Assembly: GCA_027493955.1 (NCBI GenBank)
Contig: JAOSJT010000001.1
Coordinates: 1,349,131-1,413,130 of the forward strand
Source of the DNA: Bacteroidia bacterium
Lineage (GTDB): Bacteria > Bacteroidota > Ignavibacteria > SZUA-365
Direction: 5' to 3'
DNA length: 64,000 bases
The notes under the pieces are model-generated. The model did not search any database, was not told where the DNA came from, and saw only the letters and a list, made by a program, of their open reading frames with translations. Below are positions 19,436 to 60,611 of this stretch, in pieces. How positions within the stretch are numbered: position 1 is the stretch's first letter; every line of letters begins with the position of its first letter. Position numbers and translations under genes: made by a program.

Positions 19436-19574
19436 GTCTTCATGGCAGAAGATGCCTGATTGAAACGAGAGATGGGCACCGTGCCATCGATCCTTATACA
19501 GTACCCTTAAAGTCCCTCTGCGCCTTTGCCTCTTTGCGACTTTGCGTTAATTTCTTCTCCCTGAGCCGCAATGG
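19436..19574. repeat. Copy 2 of the ~150-bp direct repeat; overlaps and supplies the last ~27 codons and the stop of the carH-like gene
   Basis: Same alignment as copy 1. The downstream arm of the inverted repeat is lost in this copy. Confidence 0.7.
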
Positions 19575-20504
19575 CGCGTCCCGGACATCGAGCAGCGGGC
19601 CGAGGTCGTCGAGATCGCGAATGATGGCCGCGTCCATCGATTCGAGAGAAGCCGCGTACGCCCCCGCCGCACGTCCTCCCACTGCCACGGCAACGCCACC
19701 GGGAAGAAGCGTGGCGAGGCGACGCAAATCGCGGTGCAGCAGAGCATCGTCGGCGGGATAGACGATGCCGAGAATCAACATGCGCGCACTCAATTGACGC
19801 ACGGCGGCCGCGATTTCCTCCGACGGAAGATTGGCGCCGAGATACACGACATTCCATCCACGCATGGCAACCGTTACTGCCGCGATGAGCGCTCCGAGTT
19901 CGTGTACTTGATTCACCGGCGTGCAAACCAGCGCCGAGGGAGCGCTGGGGAAGCGCGGCGCCGCAGCAACGATGGAGCCGAGAAAGGTGCGCACGGCTGC
20001 GGTCGCCATGTGCTCGTGCGCGATGCGCATCGTCCCCTCCTGCCATTGACGCCCGAGTGCTTCAAGAAACGGTACGATGACCTCCCCTATCAACGCCTGC
20101 TGCGGCAGATGAAGCGAGGCCTGCGTCAGCACATCCTCCAAGGCACGAACGTCCAGCGCGCGGACTGCCGCGAGCATATCGCCCTGAAAATCTCTTCCTT
20201 CGGGAGATCCGGTGCTACCCGGATCCGGCACATGCTTCCCGGTGCGTTCTTTCGCGAGAAGCTCTATAAGCGCTTCGTTGCTCAACGCCGCAAGCTCCCC
20301 GATGGAATGCCTCAGCTCGATAAGCTGGCGGAGCAAAATCAAACGCTCGATATCCCTGTCGGAATAGAGACGGCGGTTGCTTTCCGTCCGCTCCGGAGAC
20401 AAAACCTGATGCCTCTTCTCCCACGCACGGATGACATACACAGACACGCCCGACATCTCCGATGCGAGTCTTATGGGGTATTTGTATGTTTGGCTGTCTT
20501 TCAT
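19494..20504 (-). CDS. MerR-family transcriptional regulator with C-terminal cobalamin-binding-like domain (CarH/LitR-like)
   Basis: N-terminal MerR helix-turn-helix: YPIRLASEMSGVSVYVIRAWEKRHQVLSPERTESNRRLYSDRDIERL. The C-terminal region has a Q-V-H-E-L-G segment resembling the B12-binding DxHxxG motif, followed by LILGIV and VGGRAAG segments. Start placed at MKDSQTYKY. Confidence 0.55.
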   Translation of the reverse strand: MKDSQTYKYPIRLASEMSGVSVYVIRAWEKRHQVLSPERTESNRRLYSDRDIERLILLRQLIELRHSIGELAALSNEALIELLAKERTGKHVPDPGSTGSPEGRDFQGDMLAAVRALDVRALEDVLTQASLHLPQQALIGEVIVPFLEALGRQWQEGTMRIAHEHMATAAVRTFLGSIVAAAPRFPSAPSALVCTPVNQVHELGALIAAVTVAMRGWNVVYLGANLPSEEIAAAVRQLSARMLILGIVYPADDALLHRDLRRLATLLPGGVAVAVGGRAAGAYAASLESMDAAIIRDLDDLGPLLDVRDAPLRLREKKLTQSRKEAKAQRDFKGTV

Positions 20505-20682
20505 TTTGTCTAGTATTTGTATCAAACTTATTGATAAAATGTATGGAATGCAAGCATCATTACGCACTATGCAAAAATTTCTGAAATATTTGTCTAACTA
20601 CGGAACCATTATTTCTAGACACAGGTTTACAATACCGTAAGCATTACAGAGCTTTTCACTCAACGATACAAAAGGACCAGAC

Positions 20683-22811: not shown

Positions 22812-24941
22812 ATGCTGAACACACGGATACTGACCATTGCAGCCCTGACGATGGCATTATTCCCTTTGACTTCGGTCAGCCAGAATTTCTGGTCACAGAC
22901 CGACGGTCCTCACGGCGCTTCCGTCAAGTCGCTGGCAATAGCTAACGACGGCTCGCTTCTGGCGGGAACGGAAGGAGGAGGTCTCTTCCGCTCACCGGAC
23001 GACGGAGAACACTGGGAACGAATATTCGTACAGGTTCTCAACGGCATCACGCCGAAGTACAGCGAAGTTCCTGCAATCGCCCTAAACAGCGCCGGTCACA
23101 TTTATATCGGCACCTGGGGTGGTGGTATTTACAGTTCGAGAAACAACGGGAACACGTGGAGCGGCGGGTTGCCTTCGTTCACCGGAGTACGTTCGCTGGT
23201 CTTCAATGCAAGTGGAGACCTGCTTGCGGGATTCGACGGAGGAAGCTACGCATCCGGGGTATATCGGACTACGGACAACGGCTTCAGCTGGACAAACGTC
23301 GGCTTGAAAAGCTATAGACCGAACGCTTTCGCAAAAGGCGAGGACGATACACTGTACGCGTCCTCGAGTTCCGGATGCCACCTATCAACCGATTGCGGTG
23401 CTTCGTGGTCTCCTATGGGCTATCTCATACAGAACAGGGACTGCAACTCTATAGCACTTCTCGAGGACGGCACGATTCTCACTGGCACGGACCGCGGTAT
23501 TTTCAAAACGACAAACAACGGCGTTGAGTGGACGCAGGCGAACAATAATCTGCTCGACACCTTTGTGTTGTCAATCGCCGTCGGGCAGAACGGGACGGTC
23601 TTTGCAGGGACGTCGAAAGGGAGTGTCTATGCTTCGTCCAACCGGGGCGGAAACTGGCAGCGCATCAATGAGGGGTCTATCTGGTCTGCGGTAAACGTAC
23701 TCCTGGCCGATCCAGCACGCGGGCTGTTTGCCGGGACGGCAGGCGGAGGCATTTTTCACACGTCTGACGCCGGGGAGAATTGGATGCGGAAGGACCGCCG
23801 CCTGCCCGCCACGCTCGTACGCTCCATGACGGTCGCAACGGATGGACGCATTTACGCCGCTACGGCGGGCGCTGGCGTGCATCACTCTTCCGATAACGGC
23901 GAATCCTGGTATTCAACGGCGCTGGACAGTATAGACGCGCGGACGATTTTCGCATATTCCGGCGGCCATTTGTTTGCCGGTGCGGACAGTGGCGTCGTCT
24001 ATCGCTCTTCGGATGAAGGACAGACCTGGCAACGGATGCTGACAGGCGGCGTCAATGCTGTCCGCTGCTTCGGCATACATTCCACAGGCACGCTTTTCGC
24101 AGGAACGTTCGGGGAGGGTGTTTTCCGCTCCACCGACGGAGGTGACAACTGGGCGCCATCGAACGCCGGATTGACGAATATGTATATCTCAGCCACCGCC
24201 ACGGCTCGTAACGGCAATATAATCGTCGGGAGTTCCTGGGGACTGTTTATTTCGACAGACGCAGGCCTTAATTGGAGGCTCAATTCCACGCTGTCCACCG
24301 TCGGCATATCCTCGATATCCGTGACCTCGATGGGCGACCTGATAGCAGTCGCCTCGGCATCTCTTTACAAATCAACGAATCATGGGGTCAACTGGACCAG
24401 GATGACGACGGCTTCGACTTCAGGGATTCAGGCGTTGGCAACCGGCCCCGGTGGTCGGATATGGTTCAGCTCCGGACCAAGGTCCTTCAGCAACATTCCC
24501 GTAGTGTATGAATCGACCGACGACGGGGTTACATGGACCGACGTTGATCATTCAACGTCCATTCTCTCCCTCGTCTTGACTGCCAACGGCTACCTTCTTG
24601 CCGGCACAGACGGCAGCGGAGTGCTCCGTAGCGCAAAAGTGGTGCTTCCGACATCTTCCGATAAGCCCCGACCGCCAGCAGAGTGTCGACTGGAATCCAA
24701 CTATCCGAACCCATTCAGTAGCCGAACCACGATCCGCTTCACACTTTCCCACCGGCAATCCGTCCGCCTGACAGTGCACAATCTCGCCGGTGAGCAGGTG
24801 GCGCAGCTCCTGTCGGGCCAATACGATGCCGGCACTCATTGTGTGGAATGGGCTGTGCCGGAATACCCCGACGGTGCGTATTTCTGTCGGCTGATTGCGG
24901 ACGGAGCCGTGCAATCAAGCATGCTCATGATCGTTCGGTGA
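22812..24941 (+). CDS. BNR/Asp-box repeat (sialidase/sortilin-like beta-propeller) protein with T9SS C-terminal sorting domain
   Basis: More than 12 S-x-D-x-G-x-x-W Asp-box motifs (SPDDGEHW, SRNNGNTW, TTDNGFSW, STDCGASW and others). C-terminus reads YPNPFSSRTTIRFTLSHRQSVRLTVHNLAGEQVAQL...AYFCRLIADGAVQSSMLMIV. Confidence 0.8.
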   Translation: MLNTRILTIAALTMALFPLTSVSQNFWSQTDGPHGASVKSLAIANDGSLLAGTEGGGLFRSPDDGEHWERIFVQVLNGITPKYSEVPAIALNSAGHIYIGTWGGGIYSSRNNGNTWSGGLPSFTGVRSLVFNASGDLLAGFDGGSYASGVYRTTDNGFSWTNVGLKSYRPNAFAKGEDDTLYASSSSGCHLSTDCGASWSPMGYLIQNRDCNSIALLEDGTILTGTDRGIFKTTNNGVEWTQANNNLLDTFVLSIAVGQNGTVFAGTSKGSVYASSNRGGNWQRINEGSIWSAVNVLLADPARGLFAGTAGGGIFHTSDAGENWMRKDRRLPATLVRSMTVATDGRIYAATAGAGVHHSSDNGESWYSTALDSIDARTIFAYSGGHLFAGADSGVVYRSSDEGQTWQRMLTGGVNAVRCFGIHSTGTLFAGTFGEGVFRSTDGGDNWAPSNAGLTNMYISATATARNGNIIVGSSWGLFISTDAGLNWRLNSTLSTVGISSISVTSMGDLIAVASASLYKSTNHGVNWTRMTTASTSGIQALATGPGGRIWFSSGPRSFSNIPVVYESTDDGVTWTDVDHSTSILSLVLTANGYLLAGTDGSGVLRSAKVVLPTSSDKPRPPAECRLESNYPNPFSSRTTIRFTLSHRQSVRLTVHNLAGEQVAQLLSGQYDAGTHCVEWAVPEYPDGAYFCRLIADGAVQSSMLMIVR

Positions 24942-25013
24942 GACGTCGGGAGACCTTGGTAGACTGACGGGAACAGAATGATTTGCGGAGTAAGACCAAA
25001 CGAATAGACGAGG

Positions 25014-25117
25014 CGTGATTCACGTCATCGATCAGGTGCTGATTCCCGCAACGAAATAACACTCAGAACTCTGTTCTTTTTCGAACGCCGCGGCGCTTCT
25101 CCGCGGCGTTCGTGTAT
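25014..25117 (+). repeat. 105-bp direct repeat, copy 2 (duplicate of the fasciclin 3' end and hairpin), immediately after the BNR gene
   Basis: gcgtgattcacgtcatcgatcaggtgctgattcc(c/g)gcaacgaaataacactcagaactctgtt...cgaacgccgcgg.gcttct.cgcggcgttcgtgtat. Confidence 0.8.
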
Positions 25118-25417
25118 TTAGCAGCCGAAGGGGGCTTGCTCGCTGTCACATTCCCGCTGTTGATTGCCAGGTGGTACTGCCTTCAAAGGGCCGGGCGACA
25201 TTGACGCTCCGACAGCAGCCACAAGATACACCCGACGGTAGGTATATGATCGATGCCGTGTCGTGGAATGCAGGCGAATATCTGCTGCTCGCGGGATAAC
25301 AGGCTCTCCGCGTTGTGGAACAGCGATGCAGGCGATGGCATTGCGGAGCCAGACGATATCAAAGTGCGGCTCTACCCAACACGGTACCGTAGCAAGAAGG
25401 AGAATATCACTTGCTTT

Positions 25418-25516
25418 TATACCTTTACGGGTATATGTTAAGGGGTGATATCCATTTTTATACCTGCACGGGTATAACAAGTTCGCAACAGAAGCAATTA
25501 TACCCGATCAGGTACA
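25418..25516 (+). promoter_or_regulatory. Three phased palindromic operator sites TATACC-n6-GGTATA (25418-25435, 25459-25476, 25499-25516) in the hipBST promoter region
   Basis: Perfect 6-6-6 palindromes spaced 40-41 bp apart, i.e. about 4 helical turns, directly upstream of the hipB start at 25532. Confidence 0.55.
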
Positions 25517-25531
25517 ATACTCGGTGAGATA

Positions 25532-25786
25532 ATGAACATTCAGCGGTTCGTCAAGGAAAAGCGAAAAGCAACGGGTCTGACACAGCCCGATCTCGCTGAG
25601 CGCGCGGGCGTCGGATTGAGATTCGTCCGGGATTTGGAGCAGGGCAAAGCCACGTTACGAATGGACAAAGTGAACCTTGTGCTCCGTACTTTCGGGCACG
25701 AGTTGGGGCCGGTACCCATGGATCGCGATCTGCTTTTAGAAAGCGAGACCGGTATCGAACGATCAAAGAAGCGGAGCATGCAATGA
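25532..25786 (+). CDS. hipB: HipB-like XRE-family HTH antitoxin/repressor
   Basis: XRE-type helix-turn-helix segment LTQPDLAERAGVGLRFVRDLEQGK. First gene of the operon. Confidence 0.8.
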   Translation: MNIQRFVKEKRKATGLTQPDLAERAGVGLRFVRDLEQGKATLRMDKVNLVLRTFGHELGPVPMDRDLLLESETGIERSKKRSMQ

Positions 25787-26112
25787 GAATCGCAGAGGTA
25801 TTCATGCACGAACAATACGCGGGGAGACTCATCGAAGATGAGAACGGGTACACGTTCACCTATGATCCAACCTACCTCGCCTCCGGAGGAAAACCAGCAA
25901 TCAGCCTCACCCTCCCTCTTCAAAAAGAATCATTCGAAAACCCGGTCCTCTTTCCGTTTTTCGACGGCCTGATTCCCGAGGGATGGCTGCTGGACGTCGC
26001 CCGCGAAAATTGGAAGCTGGATCCGCGCGACCGCATGGGATTACTTATGACGTGTTGTCGCGACTGCATCGGCGCCGTCAGTGTGCGCGCCACCGGAGAA
26101 GCAGGATTATGA
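25783..26112 (+). CDS. hipS: HipS-like protein (HipA N-terminal subdomain as a stand-alone protein)
   Basis: 109 aa. The HipA_N-like couple motif reads VFMHEQYAGRLIEDENGYTFTYDPTYL...LPLQKESFENPVLFPFFDGLIPEGW. ATGA overlaps with both neighbouring genes. Confidence 0.75.
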   Translation: MRIAEVFMHEQYAGRLIEDENGYTFTYDPTYLASGGKPAISLTLPLQKESFENPVLFPFFDGLIPEGWLLDVARENWKLDPRDRMGLLMTCCRDCIGAVSVRATGEAGL

Positions 26113-27074
26113 ACTCTGTGAAACGCTGTCTGTTCTGCTATGCATTGCTCGATGATGAGTCCGGAGATTTTCACCCGGCATGCAGTCGAAAAATGTTCGG
26201 CACTCCTCAACCGCCCAAGTTACCGTACTCCGAGTCGGACATGCTGCGTCTGGCGCTGCAGGTAGTCCGCTCGCGGATAGCGGTAACCGGTGTGCAGGCA
26301 AAATTGTCGCTCGAACTGGAAAAGGCCGTGAAAAACGTACACGACAGGCGGTTTACCATCGTCGGAATGTGGGGACGTTATACTCTCAAACCTCCGACCC
26401 CGCAGTATCCGTACCTGCCGGAAGTGGAAGATTGCACCATGCATTTGGCATCGCTGGCAGGTTTACGCACCGTACCGCACTCACTGATTCGCATGCAATC
26501 AGGAAAGCTCGCGTACATCACCGCGAGAATTGATCGCACAAAGGAGGGGCTGCTGCACATGGAGGACATGTGCCAGATTACGGGTCGGCTCACAGAACAC
26601 AAGTATCACGGCTCACACGAGCAAATTGCGAGAGCCCTCATCCGGTACTCGGCGAATCCCTTGTTCGACGTCGGCATATTCTACGAACAGGTCCTGTTTT
26701 CATTCCTTACGGGGAATGCGGACATGCATCTGAAGAATTTCTCGCTGATCGACAGTCCCGGTATCGGCTATGCGCTCGCCCCGGCGTACGACATGGTCGC
26801 CACCGCGCTGGTCAATCCGAAGGATACGGAGGAACTCGCGCTGACACTTGACGGCAAGAAGCGGAGCATTTCCCGGCGCAGCTTCGAGAATGCGTGTTAT
26901 CTCGCCGGGCTGAATGAAAAATCCGTGGGTGCCATGTTCCGCCGCTTTGAGAAGGCGATCCCGCGCTGGATGGAATTCATAGGAATCAGCTTTTTGCCGG
27001 AAGCCGTGAAGGAAGAATTCAGGGCGATCATAAAGCAACGCGCCGGGAGAGTGGGGCTCTGTACCGGTGAATAG
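26109..27074 (+). CDS. hipT: HipT-like Ser/Thr kinase toxin (HipA C-terminal kinase core) with N-terminal CxxC...HxxC zinc-ribbon-like motif
   Basis: Gly-rich loop IAVTGVQAKLS and catalytic motif GNADMHLKNFSL (D-x-H-x-KN). The start MNSVKRCLFCYALLD at 26109 was verified. Confidence 0.85.
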   Translation: MNSVKRCLFCYALLDDESGDFHPACSRKMFGTPQPPKLPYSESDMLRLALQVVRSRIAVTGVQAKLSLELEKAVKNVHDRRFTIVGMWGRYTLKPPTPQYPYLPEVEDCTMHLASLAGLRTVPHSLIRMQSGKLAYITARIDRTKEGLLHMEDMCQITGRLTEHKYHGSHEQIARALIRYSANPLFDVGIFYEQVLFSFLTGNADMHLKNFSLIDSPGIGYALAPAYDMVATALVNPKDTEELALTLDGKKRSISRRSFENACYLAGLNEKSVGAMFRRFEKAIPRWMEFIGISFLPEAVKEEFRAIIKQRAGRVGLCTGE

Positions 27075-27326
27075 GAATCCGGATTCTCGTCCGGTGATTT
27101 CGTGTATGTCAATACATCCGCTCACCCAATCCGATGTATGCCTTCAACCTGAACCGACGACAACTGTGCACTCGTTCCGCTACATACATCATACAGGCCG
27201 AGTGGGGTCGCGCGATATTCTCGCGGGGAGGAAATCTTCATCCATGCCTTCCGCGATATGTCGAAAAAAACAGCCGGACTGAGCGGTAGCATGCTGCGCA
27301 CACATCCCGGTTTCGCTTCAGACGAA

Positions 27327-28901
27327 TCACCAGACGAGCATACTGCGCATGGACTGCACGCCACCCGCTCGCAGAACGACGGTGTATACGCCTGATGGAA
27401 TCTGCCGCACGCGGAAAGGGACGCTGTACATCCCGCACTCCTGCAGGCCTTCCACAAGCGTCGCGACGCAGCGCCCCATCGCATCGTACACACGCAGCGA
27501 CACCTCGCCTGCAGCGGGGAGTGTGTAATTGATCGTCGTCGCTTCGCGGAAGGGATTCGGATAATTCTGCTCCAATCGCGGACTCGCCGGCGTTGTCTCA
27601 AGCTGCGACCCATGATCTCCCATTCCGGTGGTGGCCGATGCGTCGCGTACCAGACGCACGTAATTATATATGCGAATCGCGTCCCCCTGCGGACCGCGGC
27701 CCTGCGGATAGTCCGCGGGATCGCCCGCTTTGGGATCGGAGCGCTGACAACCGGCGCCGTGCACGTCTATCCACCTGCCGTTCATATAGCCCATTCCCCT
27801 GCCGAAGGCCACATACGCTGCGGCGTTTCCGCTGCCGTTGAATGCCGCGTGCGTGGTCGAAGACCAATAACAGGGGTAATCCTGTTCGCCCGCTTCATTC
27901 GTGATGCTCGTGCAATCGAATACCGGATCGATGGCCGGAGAATTGCTGCTGGCCGGCGCGCGTGTGTAATCAAGTATGCTCTGAAGCTCCTTGACATTGG
28001 GCAGGCGCCAGTCGTTGTGGCCCAGATACGTTTCGTTGTTTTTCTGCGCCGCCCAGGCGAGGGCGTCCTGCCAATTCAGTTTGACGCCGCCGTCGGATTG
28101 CGACCACATCAGTCCTGTTGCACGGTCGGTGATAGTGCCATCGCCATTGTCGAAGAAGTCATTGTTGCCGTAGCTCGTGTTGCCCCGCACGCAGAGCACG
28201 AAATATGTCGCTGTCCGCCCGCCCGGTCCGGTGGATTTCGGGTAACCTTTGATGCGTCCATCGGCGAAATTGACACCGAACATGGTCTCGCCGCCGCCCA
28301 TAGTCGTGGATGTGTACAGCGTGCTGCTCGCGTACTGCGCATCGATAATGCGTTCGCCCGCCGCGGGATCTCCGTAAGCGAATCTGAGATACTCCTGATC
28401 GAGGAAGGACGTCAATTGCCGCGTGTCGGTACCGTTGTAGCCGGAAGGATCGGTGCCGCGAAAATCCATGAGGGAATACAGCTCCTTGATCGTCGGCAGT
28501 CTCCAGTCACTGTAGCCGCCGTGCACCGCAGAATTGAGCGCCACGGGATGAGCCGTGGCCTGCGCGAAGGTGAGCTTATCTGCGGATGAGACAATCCCGT
28601 CGCCGTTGGTGTCCGCAGCCCGCTGCCAGGTCAAACCGCTGACGTGGTCGAACACCGTCAAGCCATCGGTGCTCACGGTATAACTCGGCTGATGTCCCGC
28701 GTACTGTGCGTCCTGCCCGTGGAAGGGTTGCCCGATTTGCGGCGTCGCTATGACCGCGTTGTTGTTGTAGCTCAACTGCTGATGCGTATCAACCACGGAA
28801 TACGGCAATTGCTGCGCATGCGTCATCCATGCTGAAAGAGGACAAAGCACCAGGAAGAGTGTATACGGCAATCGTTTTGTTGAACGATGTGAAGCTTTCA
28901 T
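27327..28901 (-). CDS. DUF1566 (Lcl C-terminal domain) repeat protein with T9SS C-terminal sorting domain
   Basis: Two DUF1566 signatures (YSDWRLPTIKELYSL and HNDWRLPNVKELQSIL). C-terminal tail reads YPNPFREATTINYTLPAAGEVSLRVYDAMGRCVATL...VYTVVLRAGGVQSMRSMLV. Confidence 0.8.
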   Translation of the reverse strand: MKASHRSTKRLPYTLFLVLCPLSAWMTHAQQLPYSVVDTHQQLSYNNNAVIATPQIGQPFHGQDAQYAGHQPSYTVSTDGLTVFDHVSGLTWQRAADTNGDGIVSSADKLTFAQATAHPVALNSAVHGGYSDWRLPTIKELYSLMDFRGTDPSGYNGTDTRQLTSFLDQEYLRFAYGDPAAGERIIDAQYASSTLYTSTTMGGGETMFGVNFADGRIKGYPKSTGPGGRTATYFVLCVRGNTSYGNNDFFDNGDGTITDRATGLMWSQSDGGVKLNWQDALAWAAQKNNETYLGHNDWRLPNVKELQSILDYTRAPASSNSPAIDPVFDCTSITNEAGEQDYPCYWSSTTHAAFNGSGNAAAYVAFGRGMGYMNGRWIDVHGAGCQRSDPKAGDPADYPQGRGPQGDAIRIYNYVRLVRDASATTGMGDHGSQLETTPASPRLEQNYPNPFREATTINYTLPAAGEVSLRVYDAMGRCVATLVEGLQECGMYSVPFRVRQIPSGVYTVVLRAGGVQSMRSMLVW

Positions 28902-29163
28902 GCTGTGTTGCCTCAAAAACCGCTATGTGGGACGCAGTTGCATTTTCTCCGCTCTGCGCCAAAGATGTGTTTGACAGGAAAAGGGTGAGATTCGTTTAAT
29001 GCCCGCAGTGGAGAGCACGAGCGGCCGCTGATCATACGGCGGACGTCTCCACTGAGAGCGCTCTGCTCCGAACGGCAGTACGATAAAATCGCGGATTCTG
29101 TGCGACGCGCATCTTGTTGCATGCTACGTCAAAATACTCCGCCACACGGCGTGGAAACCTGCC

Positions 29164-45225: not shown

Positions 45226-46353
45226 TCACCTTCTACGGTTCCAGGTCGTGCGCAATTCATCCCTGAACCAATTCACGATGTTCAGGTATATCGACCGATA
45301 CGTAGCCCTGTATTCCGCGGAGCTCATGCCTTCGTTCCTACGGAAATACACGGCGGGCTCTTCCGCGATCCCGATCAGACAATCACTGATCCACTCCCGG
45401 ATCGCGCCGAGCATGGCCTCTGCCACAGGCATCGTGAGCTTTCCTTTCCCGACATAGGCCGCACGCACCCATGCCCCCGTCGTATCGAGCGCCGCCTCGA
45501 TGCCGGCCCGCAGCTCATTTTCCTCTCTCTCCGGAATACCATGTTCGCTTGACTCACCCTCCCCGGACTTGTACATAGCCGCAGGCCACATCTTCGTATA
45601 GTGCAACACGTCCCTTTCGGGCACCTCGCGTCTGTAATCCTCCTGAGCGGCGAGGACACTCAGACTGGCAGTCAGAACCTGTACGACGGGATTAGTCGGG
45701 TGCCCCCCGCTCGATGAGGCGACGCGGGCGTTGTAGATCGGGAGATACCGGGGGATGCGCCGGAGGAGCTCCTCGACCGGCATGAACGGTCGGTCTTTCA
45801 GTATATCTCTGCCGGCAAGGCTGTATACGCGACCGAGCTCGGAGTCAGCATGCTTCAGTCCGGGCGTCTTTTTCCTATGATGATCAAGCGCCCTTAGAAG
45901 ATTTGTATGCGTGGCATTGTCTTCCGACAAAATGCGGCAAAACTCCTGACGCACGCAACGCCGGACGAGACCGTGTATATACCCGCACGGGAGTACGAAA
46001 TGCTCAGGGAAAGTGCAAATTGCCGCAAGCGATCGTCTGAGTTTCCCGCAGGGCTTCTTCCCGTCCCAAGCGAGAAGGCCTGCCATGCTATCATTCGCCA
46101 CGTCGCGTTGCGACAGGCCCAACTCGTCGAGCCGCCAATATCCGTGATGCATCTGACGCCCGACTTCCTCATATTCAAACGTCAGCATTATCTGAATAGG
46201 CTCCGCCACCTCGGCGTTGCTCAGCGTCCGCTCCAACAGACCCCGGAACAAACGCTCATGCACGTTTTTGTGTTCGCACTCCGCCATACGGGACTCCTCA
46301 CCTCGTTTGTCCGCAACATCCGGACCCGAACCCTCACGACACCGGGACATCAT
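45226..46353 (-). CDS. Cytoplasmic hypothetical protein (start possibly 46287, MAECEHKNV)
   Basis: High-GC ORF immediately upstream of, and co-oriented with, the low-GC island genes. No motif recognised. Confidence 0.5.
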   Translation of the reverse strand: MMSRCREGSGPDVADKRGEESRMAECEHKNVHERLFRGLLERTLSNAEVAEPIQIMLTFEYEEVGRQMHHGYWRLDELGLSQRDVANDSMAGLLAWDGKKPCGKLRRSLAAICTFPEHFVLPCGYIHGLVRRCVRQEFCRILSEDNATHTNLLRALDHHRKKTPGLKHADSELGRVYSLAGRDILKDRPFMPVEELLRRIPRYLPIYNARVASSSGGHPTNPVVQVLTASLSVLAAQEDYRREVPERDVLHYTKMWPAAMYKSGEGESSEHGIPEREENELRAGIEAALDTTGAWVRAAYVGKGKLTMPVAEAMLGAIREWISDCLIGIAEEPAVYFRRNEGMSSAEYRATYRSIYLNIVNWFRDELRTTWNRRR

Positions 46354-59937: not shown

Positions 59938-60611
59938 AGCGCATTTTCATTATCGAAGATGATCCGGCGATACGTGAAGGACTCGAAGTAAGCCTCCGGG
60001 ACGCGCATTACGAGGTCGAAGCGGAAGCAGACGGAGAGCGCGGTTTCGTGAAGGTGAAACGCAATCCCCCGGACGCCATCATCCTCGACCTGATGCTGCC
60101 GTCGAAGAACGGTGAGGACATCTGTCGCGACCTTCGCGCGGCAGGTGTGCAAACGCCCATTCTCATGTTGACAAGCAAAGGAAGTGAATTGGATACGGTG
60201 CTGGGTCTGGAACTCGGAGCCGATGATTACATGACAAAACCCTTCTCTCTTCGTGAGCTGCACGCCCGCATCAAGGCCCTGCTCCGACGCGCTCCGGAGA
60301 CGCATCCGGTGGAGGAGATGGAAGTCAACGGTATATGGCTCAACACGCGCACGCGCGAAGTGCTGCGCGACGGGAGCGCCATTGATCTGTCAACGAGGGA
60401 ATTCGATATCCTCACCTATATGATGCAGCATAAGAACGAAGTGATCACACGGGACATGCTGCTCGACGATGTGTGGGGCTACGAGCACTATCCGACGACG
60501 CGCACGGTGGATAACTATATTCTTTCACTGCGTAAAAAAATCGAACCGGAACCGTCGCATCCCAGATACATCATCACCATACACACATCGGGGTATAAAT
60601 TCATTGGCTGA
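59934..60611 (+). CDS. OmpR/PhoB-family response regulator
   Basis: Receiver motif IIEDDP...DAIILDLMLP...LTSKGS, plus a winged-helix trans_reg_C domain. ATGA-overlapped with the kinase gene. Confidence 0.9.
   Translation: MKRIFIIEDDPAIREGLEVSLRDAHYEVEAEADGERGFVKVKRNPPDAIILDLMLPSKNGEDICRDLRAAGVQTPILMLTSKGSELDTVLGLELGADDYMTKPFSLRELHARIKALLRRAPETHPVEEMEVNGIWLNTRTREVLRDGSAIDLSTREFDILTYMMQHKNEVITRDMLLDDVWGYEHYPTTRTVDNYILSLRKKIEPEPSHPRYIITIHTSGYKFIG

Follow-up and report, generated by a model that had tools for sequence, protein, structure and literature searches.

We analysed a 64-kb stretch (the window) of Bacteroidia bacterium contig JAOSJT010000001.1, in which three genes, hipB, hipS and hipT, lie in tandem on the plus strand, preceded by three evenly spaced palindromes. 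The open reading frames (ORFs) read in the window encode 84, 109 and 321 amino acids in that order and overlap by ATGA at both junctions, as an earlier sequence-only reading of this DNA had described. The locus is almost certainly an intact member of the HipBST family of tripartite toxin–antitoxin (TA) systems. For DNA comparison we used two close relatives, L081 (93% identity in HipT) and L082 (70%), and residues are called invariant with reference to an alignment of 31 HipT homologs (A1). The features are as follows.

25405–27074, plus strand: extent of the shared hipBST cassette, at the ends of which DNA similarity to L081 stops
25418–25435, no strand: candidate operator O1 (distal), TATACCTTTACGGGTATA, TATACC-TTTACG-GGTATA, a perfect palindrome, kept in L081 and L082
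25459–25476, no strand: candidate operator O2, TATACCTGCACGGGTATA, TATACC-TGCACG-GGTATA, perfect, with arms extending to 7 bp (TTATACC...GGTATAA)
25499–25516, no strand: candidate operator O3 (proximal), TATACCCGATCAGGTACA, TATACC-CGATCA-GGTACA, one mismatch, ending 15 nt before the hipB ATG
25523–25528, plus strand: Shine–Dalgarno-like GGTGAG 5′ of hipB, a sequence reading, with GGTGA kept in L081 and L082
25532–25786, plus strand: hipB, predicted XRE/Cro-type helix-turn-helix (HTH) repressor, 84 amino acids
25783–26112, plus strand: hipS, HipA N-subdomain-1 protein, predicted antitoxin, 109 amino acids
25978–25986, plus strand: HipS Glu66-Gly67-Trp68 (Trp wedge), aligned to Glu63-Gly64-Trp65 of Escherichia coli O127 HipS
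26109–27074, plus strand: hipT, HipA-core Ser/Thr kinase, predicted toxin, 321 amino acids
26127–26183, plus strand: C7-x2-C10...H22-x2-C25 in an N-terminal minidomain of HipT, probable treble-clef zinc site, invariant
26280–26309, plus strand: Gly-rich (P) loop A58-V-T60-G-V-Q-A-K-L-S67, aligned to MS54VQGVQKKLS of Legionella HipT (HipT(Lp)) and MS57IS59GYQPKL of E. coli O127 HipT (HipT(O127))
26721–26738, plus strand: catalytic motif D205-M-H207-L-K209-N210, aligned to HipT(Lp) GNEDMHLKNFS (catalytic Asp D197), invariant
26790–26792, plus strand: Mg-binding Asp228 of an AYD motif, aligned to HipT(Lp) AYD (D219), with Y227 and D228 invariant

HipB matched the Pfam family HTH_3 (4.6e-7) and passed the curated TIGR03070 couple_hipB model with 79.3 bits against a cutoff of 71.65, which bears out its earlier assignment as an XRE-type HTH protein. 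Its best solved relative was the Legionella HipB, HipB(Lp) (8ezt). A C-terminal Trp, which the HipB of HipBA systems uses, was absent from this HipB and from every HipB of the related loci surveyed. The GGTGAG just upstream would serve as the hipB ribosome-binding site. The 109-residue product, which had been read as a HipA N-subdomain protein, matched Couple_hipA over its full length (Pfam, 2.9e-28) and TIGR03071 (1e-29), as well as the solved HipS proteins of Haemophilus (HI_0666), Legionella (HipS(Lp)) and E. coli O127 (HipS(O127)). In E. coli O127, HipS neutralises HipT, its Trp65 wedge is essential for this neutralisation, and HipB alone represses the promoter (PMC10627512). The equivalent Trp, which follows a PEG motif, was kept in HipS of 78 of 79 related loci. 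Judged from its sequence, HipS is likely to be the antitoxin of HipT.

HipT matched HipA_C over residues 58–286 (3.6e-40) and had no Couple_hipA match, so it lacks N-subdomain 1. Alignment with HipT(Lp) covered residues 2–315 (E 2.2e-46, 162 bits); alignment with HipT(O127) covered residues 20–233 only (E 2.4e-20, 76 bits), and canonical HipA proteins reached only about 1e-6. We modelled HipT with AlphaFold2 from 31 homologs (predicted local distance difference test score (pLDDT) 82, predicted template modelling score 0.86). Foldseek placed Legionella HipT first (7vkc and 7wcf; template modelling score 0.84–0.86), followed by E. coli HipT and then HipA. For each of the three products, the nearest solved proteins are thus parts of HipBST systems. 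The D-x-H-x-K-N motif expected of such a kinase was present and aligned with the Legionella and E. coli residues (D205-M-H-L-K-N210), as was the Mg-binding D228, and in the Gly-rich loop G61, V62, Q63, K65 and S67 were invariant. In this loop, the counterparts of Ala58 are E. coli Ser57 and Legionella Ser54, and those of Thr60 are E. coli Ser59 and Legionella Gln56. The sequence-only reading had reported a loop AVTGVQAK in which Thr replaces the autophosphorylated Ser. The loop is there and Thr60 does correspond to E. coli Ser59, but the other phosphosite (Ser57/Ser54) is Ala58, and the AVT triad is common, occurring in 41 of 120 close homologs (TVT in 48, SVT in 9). Baerentsen et al. 2023 describe a set of Ser/Thr loop motifs into which A-V-T fits (PMC10627512). 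We rejected a longer, 363-residue hipT that would start at an ATG at 25983: all 120 homologs start close to the Cys motif, and the junction that is conserved is the ATGA overlap.

To place the locus in its family, we searched with HipT and scanned genomes for related loci. The HipT family is large, with at least 8,000 proteins below 1e-10 in 90% clusters and 5,991 representatives at or below 1e-3 in 50% clusters. In the genome scan, which took a single genome for each species, we obtained 80 loci; they come from Bacteroidota, Chlorobium, Ignavibacteria and a few Melainabacteria-like bins. The order hipB-hipS-hipT was found in 79 of them; the contig of the 80th was too short to show the upstream genes.

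The three palindromes had been described as near-perfect TATACC-n6-GGTATA sites at 40–41-bp spacing. Two are in fact perfect and the third has a single mismatch, and their starts are 41 bp (O1–O2) and 40 bp (O2–O3) apart. Allowing up to two mismatches, we found five matches in the window where 0.49 were expected, a number reached in none of 100 shuffles. Only O1–O3 match with zero or one mismatch. We took the remaining two, each with two mismatches, as chance: TATACCCGCACGGGAGTA at 45978–45995 lies inside a 375-amino-acid minus-strand ORF with no hip genes near it, and the other lies at 60580. A candidate fourth operator, TCTACCCAACACGGTACC at 25372–25389, was also set aside; it has three mismatches, is 46 bp off and thus out of register, and falls outside the DNA common to L081. 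All three sites are kept in L082 while the spacers have diverged, and both relatives retain the imperfect right arm of O3, GGTACA. Further 5′ of O1 the DNA is unrelated in L081 and L082, although O1 itself is conserved.

The array recurs across the family. Counting sites with up to two mismatches in the 260–300 bp upstream of hipB, we found at least one TATACC-N6-GGTATA site in 76 of the 80 loci and three or four sites in 61. Adjacent pairs were spaced by 41 bp in 95 of 151 cases and by 40 bp in 50 (40 or 41 bp in 145 of 151), and the operators stand at a fixed distance from the hipB start codon across several phyla. The family consensus reads TT-TATACCC-GAWA-RGGTATA-A. Two 6-bp arms set 12 bp apart form a dyad that fits a Cro-type HTH dimer. 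On the pattern of these sequences, HipB very probably binds the TATACC-N6-GGTATA sites. The rigid spacing suggests that structure constrains the array, most simply through contacts between complexes bound at adjacent operators. In many Bacteroidota relatives (among L001–L080), the proximal operator ends 2–5 nt before the hipB ATG and has a TAnnTTT box directly 5′ of it, which we take to resemble the Bacteroidota −7 promoter element. Given this box and this distance to the ATG, transcription in those relatives would start inside the operator and produce a very short leader.

The N-terminal Cys/His motif of HipT was similarly widespread. The sequence-only reading had called CxxC...HxxC an extra motif; it is indeed present, but it is the normal state of the clade, occurring in all of the 120 close homologs and, among diverse HipT representatives with an intact N terminus, in 111 of 118. 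In the HipT model, CxxC lies in a hairpin (residues 6–13) and HxxC at the start of a helix (residues 23–30), with pLDDT values of 79–93. This is the arrangement of a treble clef, which would probably bind zinc. Among the seven representatives that lack the motif are sequences like the ‘RCxITY’ N terminus of Legionella and E. coli, so the two studied HipT proteins appear to represent a degenerate state, and the zinc site was probably lost in both. Zinc or cysteine in the sense of such a motif is absent from Gerdes 2021, Zhen 2022, Lin 2023 and Baerentsen 2023. Zhen et al. 2022 do mention an older prediction, which they rejected, that likened residues 4–28 of Lpg2370 to the RING ligase FANCL. 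As a speculation, this resemblance may be an echo of the vestigial finger.

We also found 12 representatives of 408–457 amino acids that are single polypeptides consisting of HipS, a linker, the Cys/His minidomain and the HipT core (identifiers given: P0162, P0176, P0187, P0198, P0210, P0215, P0216, P0217, P0227 and P0232). The CxxC...HxxC ligands are kept in 10 of the 12. Split and fused forms therefore coexist in the clade, which bears on the question of whether a split of hipA or a fusion of hipS and hipT took place.

Comparison with known systems refined the earlier likening of this locus to E. coli O127 HipBST. The tripartite HipBST identity stands, but the kinase is closer to that of Legionella (E 2e-46 versus 2e-20), and the locus belongs to a Legionella-like subclade whose members are common among Bacteroidota, Chlorobiota and Ignavibacteria. 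Lin et al. 2023 reported that Legionella-type HipBST homologs are widely distributed in the Fibrobacteres–Chlorobi–Bacteroidetes (FCB) superphylum (PMC10653801). The L. pneumophila system (Lpg2368–2370; 7vkb, 7vkc, 7wcf and 8ezr–8ezt) also has these three genes, in identical order and overlapping by 4 bp. Its HipT aligns over the full length, its HipB is the best solved relative of ours, and it likewise has three evenly spaced 18-bp operators of 6-6-6 layout with the proximal one just 5′ of hipB. In electrophoretic mobility shift assays, HipB(Lp) bound these three 18-nt operators, which have 6-nt arms and the first of which lies 24 nt upstream of hipB; HipT(Lp) joined HipB on the DNA, as seen by a supershift (PMC10653801). 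The same study states that the target of HipT(Lp) is neither TrpS nor GltX, and the Legionella operator motifs are reported there to be absent upstream of hipBST(Ec) (PMC10653801).

The two systems differ in several respects. From the published oligonucleotides, the Legionella sites read TTACYG-N6-CAGTAA with starts 71 bp apart, whereas those described here are TATACC-N6-GGTATA at 40–41 bp. We found no likeness between Legionella and FCB half-sites beyond the 6-6-6 layout. The TTACYG motif and the 71-bp spacing are a property of the genus Legionella and no criterion for the subclade. Legionella HipS has Ile65/Met66 in place of the Trp wedge, and Legionella HipT has Ser54, which is autophosphorylated, where this HipT has Ala58, and Gln56 where it has Thr60; the four Cys/His ligands kept here are missing from it. 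E. coli O127:H6 HipBST (7ab3–7ab5) shares the tripartite split kinase, the Glu-Gly-Trp wedge of HipS, a Ser/Thr at the Ser59 position and a HipB without the C-terminal Trp of the HipBA HipB. Its kinase is more distant (aligned over residues 20–233), has Ser57 instead of Ala and lacks the CxxC...HxxC ligands, and its target, TrpS, cannot be assumed here.

The bipartite HipBA system of E. coli K-12 has a HipA-fold kinase core with the same catalytic motifs and an XRE-type HipB repressor. Several 18-bp dyads also lie 5′ of its hipB (four copies of TATCC-N8-GGATA, the proximal one 22 bp from the start codon), but these have 5-nt arms, an 8-nt centre and spacings of 28, 39 and 28 bp. In HipBA the kinase and N-subdomain 1 form one polypeptide, HipB is the antitoxin and the target is GltX. 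A HipBA identity for the present locus was ruled out: the kinase and the N-subdomain are separate ORFs, each with its own start and stop.

To define the extent of the unit, we compared the locus with L081. The DNA common to both begins a short way 5′ of O1, at about 25405, and continues up to the last codons of hipT; the L081 flanks are unrelated to the window, and the genes next to them are different ones. The three genes and their operators thus make up one compact cassette, about 1.67 kb long, which has moved. Ratios of non-synonymous to synonymous changes per site (pN/pS) against L081 were 0.00 for hipB, 0.06 for hipS and 0.20 for hipT, so all three genes are under purifying selection. The cassette showed no compositional anomaly, its GC content (0.49–0.56) being close to that of its neighbours (0.52–0.63), and no direct repeats bracket it as a sign of insertion.

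We conclude, with a probability of about 0.9, that the locus is a functional tripartite type II TA cassette of the HipBST family that works as follows. HipB, as a Cro-type HTH dimer, would occupy O1–O3, which make up about half of the 115 bp 5′ of hipB, and repress the operon; HipT or a HipS–HipT complex probably joins it on the DNA, and the fixed 40–41-bp spacing would reflect cooperative contacts between complexes on neighbouring operators. HipS, which corresponds to the detached N-subdomain 1 of HipA, would bind the N-lobe of HipT and insert Trp68 beside the Gly-rich loop. Its predicted role as antitoxin follows from this wedge, which would hold the loop in an inactive, ejected state. Free HipT would phosphorylate an essential cellular target and thereby arrest growth. 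By analogy, that target is most likely an aminoacyl-tRNA synthetase.

Several points weigh against this reading. The experimental data on HipBST come from relatives outside this clade. The nearest characterised kinase, HipT(Lp), offers no target that could be transferred to this HipT, its own being neither TrpS nor GltX. The autophosphorylation control of HipT may also differ, because Ala58 stands where both characterised HipT proteins have an autophosphorylated Ser. No sigma-70-type promoter in the operator region reached the threshold of our scan. Lastly, 40–41 bp does not make a whole number of helical turns. The sequence-only reading had placed the operators on the same face of the helix. 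The spacing on which it relied holds, but it amounts to 3.8–3.9 turns, and the alignment is only approximate: 40.5 bp corresponds to 3.86 turns of B-DNA, an offset of about 50 degrees per step.

We considered whether the cassette might mainly serve abortive infection, with HipT released on phage infection to kill or arrest the cell, rather than act as a persistence or addiction module. Its compactness and its different neighbourhoods among close relatives are reminiscent of mobile defence and TA genes, and PADLOC gave matches to the candidate system PDC-M03A (E 2.9e-6, 25 bits). These matches are weak and partial, however, no phage-sensing component is evident, and the neighbours within about 6 kb are secreted or type IX secretion system (T9SS) proteins and regulators, with no defence or mobile-element genes among them. 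A defence role is unlikely on this evidence; it would in any case be compatible with the same molecular mechanism and compete with the TA reading only over biological role. The strict conservation of operator number and spacing raises a different possibility, that HipT is not a toxin but a regulatory kinase retained at its own promoter, and that the main output of a HipB–HipS–HipT nucleoprotein complex is transcriptional control. HipT(Lp) does join HipB on DNA (PMC10653801), and screens did not reveal its target. We regard this as very improbable, as the cassette is autonomous and mobile, its own three operators are the only matches with zero or one mismatch in the window, and all characterised HipT proteins inhibit growth.

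It is equally hard to sustain, and if anything a shade harder, that the palindromes are not HipB operators but repeats of a generic kind or the binding sites of a different factor, for instance a recombinase or a host regulator. Their operator role in this clade is a prediction from sequence, and each right half-site, taken with the adjoining bases, looks like a −10 hexamer (family consensus GG-TATAAT), so their conservation could partly reflect promoter elements. Yet 76 of 80 loci, in several phyla, have the motif upstream of hipB at a fixed distance from the start codon; a dyad of 6-6-6 layout is well matched to a Cro-type HTH dimer; in the Legionella relative, HipB is proven to bind sites of this layout; and no recombinase gene accompanies the cassette.

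The remaining features concern the surroundings of the cassette. Besides secreted proteins with T9SS tails, the neighbouring genes in the window code for a fasciclin protein, a DUF4397 protein, a MerR-B12 regulator and an arylsulfotransferase. The products of the two flanking genes, at 22812–24941 (plus strand) and 27327–28916 (minus strand), are both secreted and carry a T9SS C-terminal sorting domain; one of these genes specifies a BNR/Sortilin-type propeller and the other an Lcl_C (DUF1566-like) protein. In the product of the gene at 19494–20567 (minus strand), a MerR HTH is joined to two B12-binding domains, as in CarH-like regulators that depend on light or cobalamin. A long intergenic region 5′ of the cassette (24942–25405) is not common to the closest hipBST relative. 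It contains a strong terminator-like hairpin at 25082–25112, after the upstream T9SS gene, followed by about 290 bp without a recognisable gene or Rfam match. Known RNA families of the Rfam type were not found anywhere in 24900–27400. An exact 14-nt direct repeat, AAGAAGCGGAGCAT, occurs at 25766–25779 (the 3′ end of hipB, encoding KKRSM) and at 26856–26869 (inside hipT, encoding KKRSI), and may be due to chance. One further feature lies directly 3′ of the cassette:

27079–27094, no strand: short GC-rich hairpin CCGGATTCTCGTCCGG directly 3′ of the hipT stop, flagged on the minus strand, weak evidence

This hairpin may be a bidirectional terminator between convergent genes.

HipBST has so far been studied only in three Gammaproteobacteria. 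That Legionella-type systems are widespread in FCB is already known, and this locus is an ordinary intact chromosomal TA cassette. Previously undescribed are the operator motif with its 40–41-bp period, the Cys2-His-Cys motif of HipT and the occurrence of a Trp-wedge HipS alongside a Legionella-like kinase; these features belong to the whole clade rather than to this locus and are modest in interest. A more far-reaching idea, which we consider doubtful, is that in most HipT proteins of the clade the minidomain is a real zinc treble-clef module, lost in the two studied HipT proteins, that acts as a metal- or redox-sensitive switch or as a contact through which HipT is joined to HipB and to adjacent complexes. 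Such a module and the rigid 40–41-bp array would together build a higher-order HipBST–DNA assembly that couples toxin sequestration to promoter occupancy. The common form of the Legionella-type subclade differs from the studied ones in its Cys2-His-Cys motif, its Trp-wedge pairing and its near-invariant operator period. The known workings of HipBST are unchanged by this, and the three clade features provide testable handles on autoregulation and activation.

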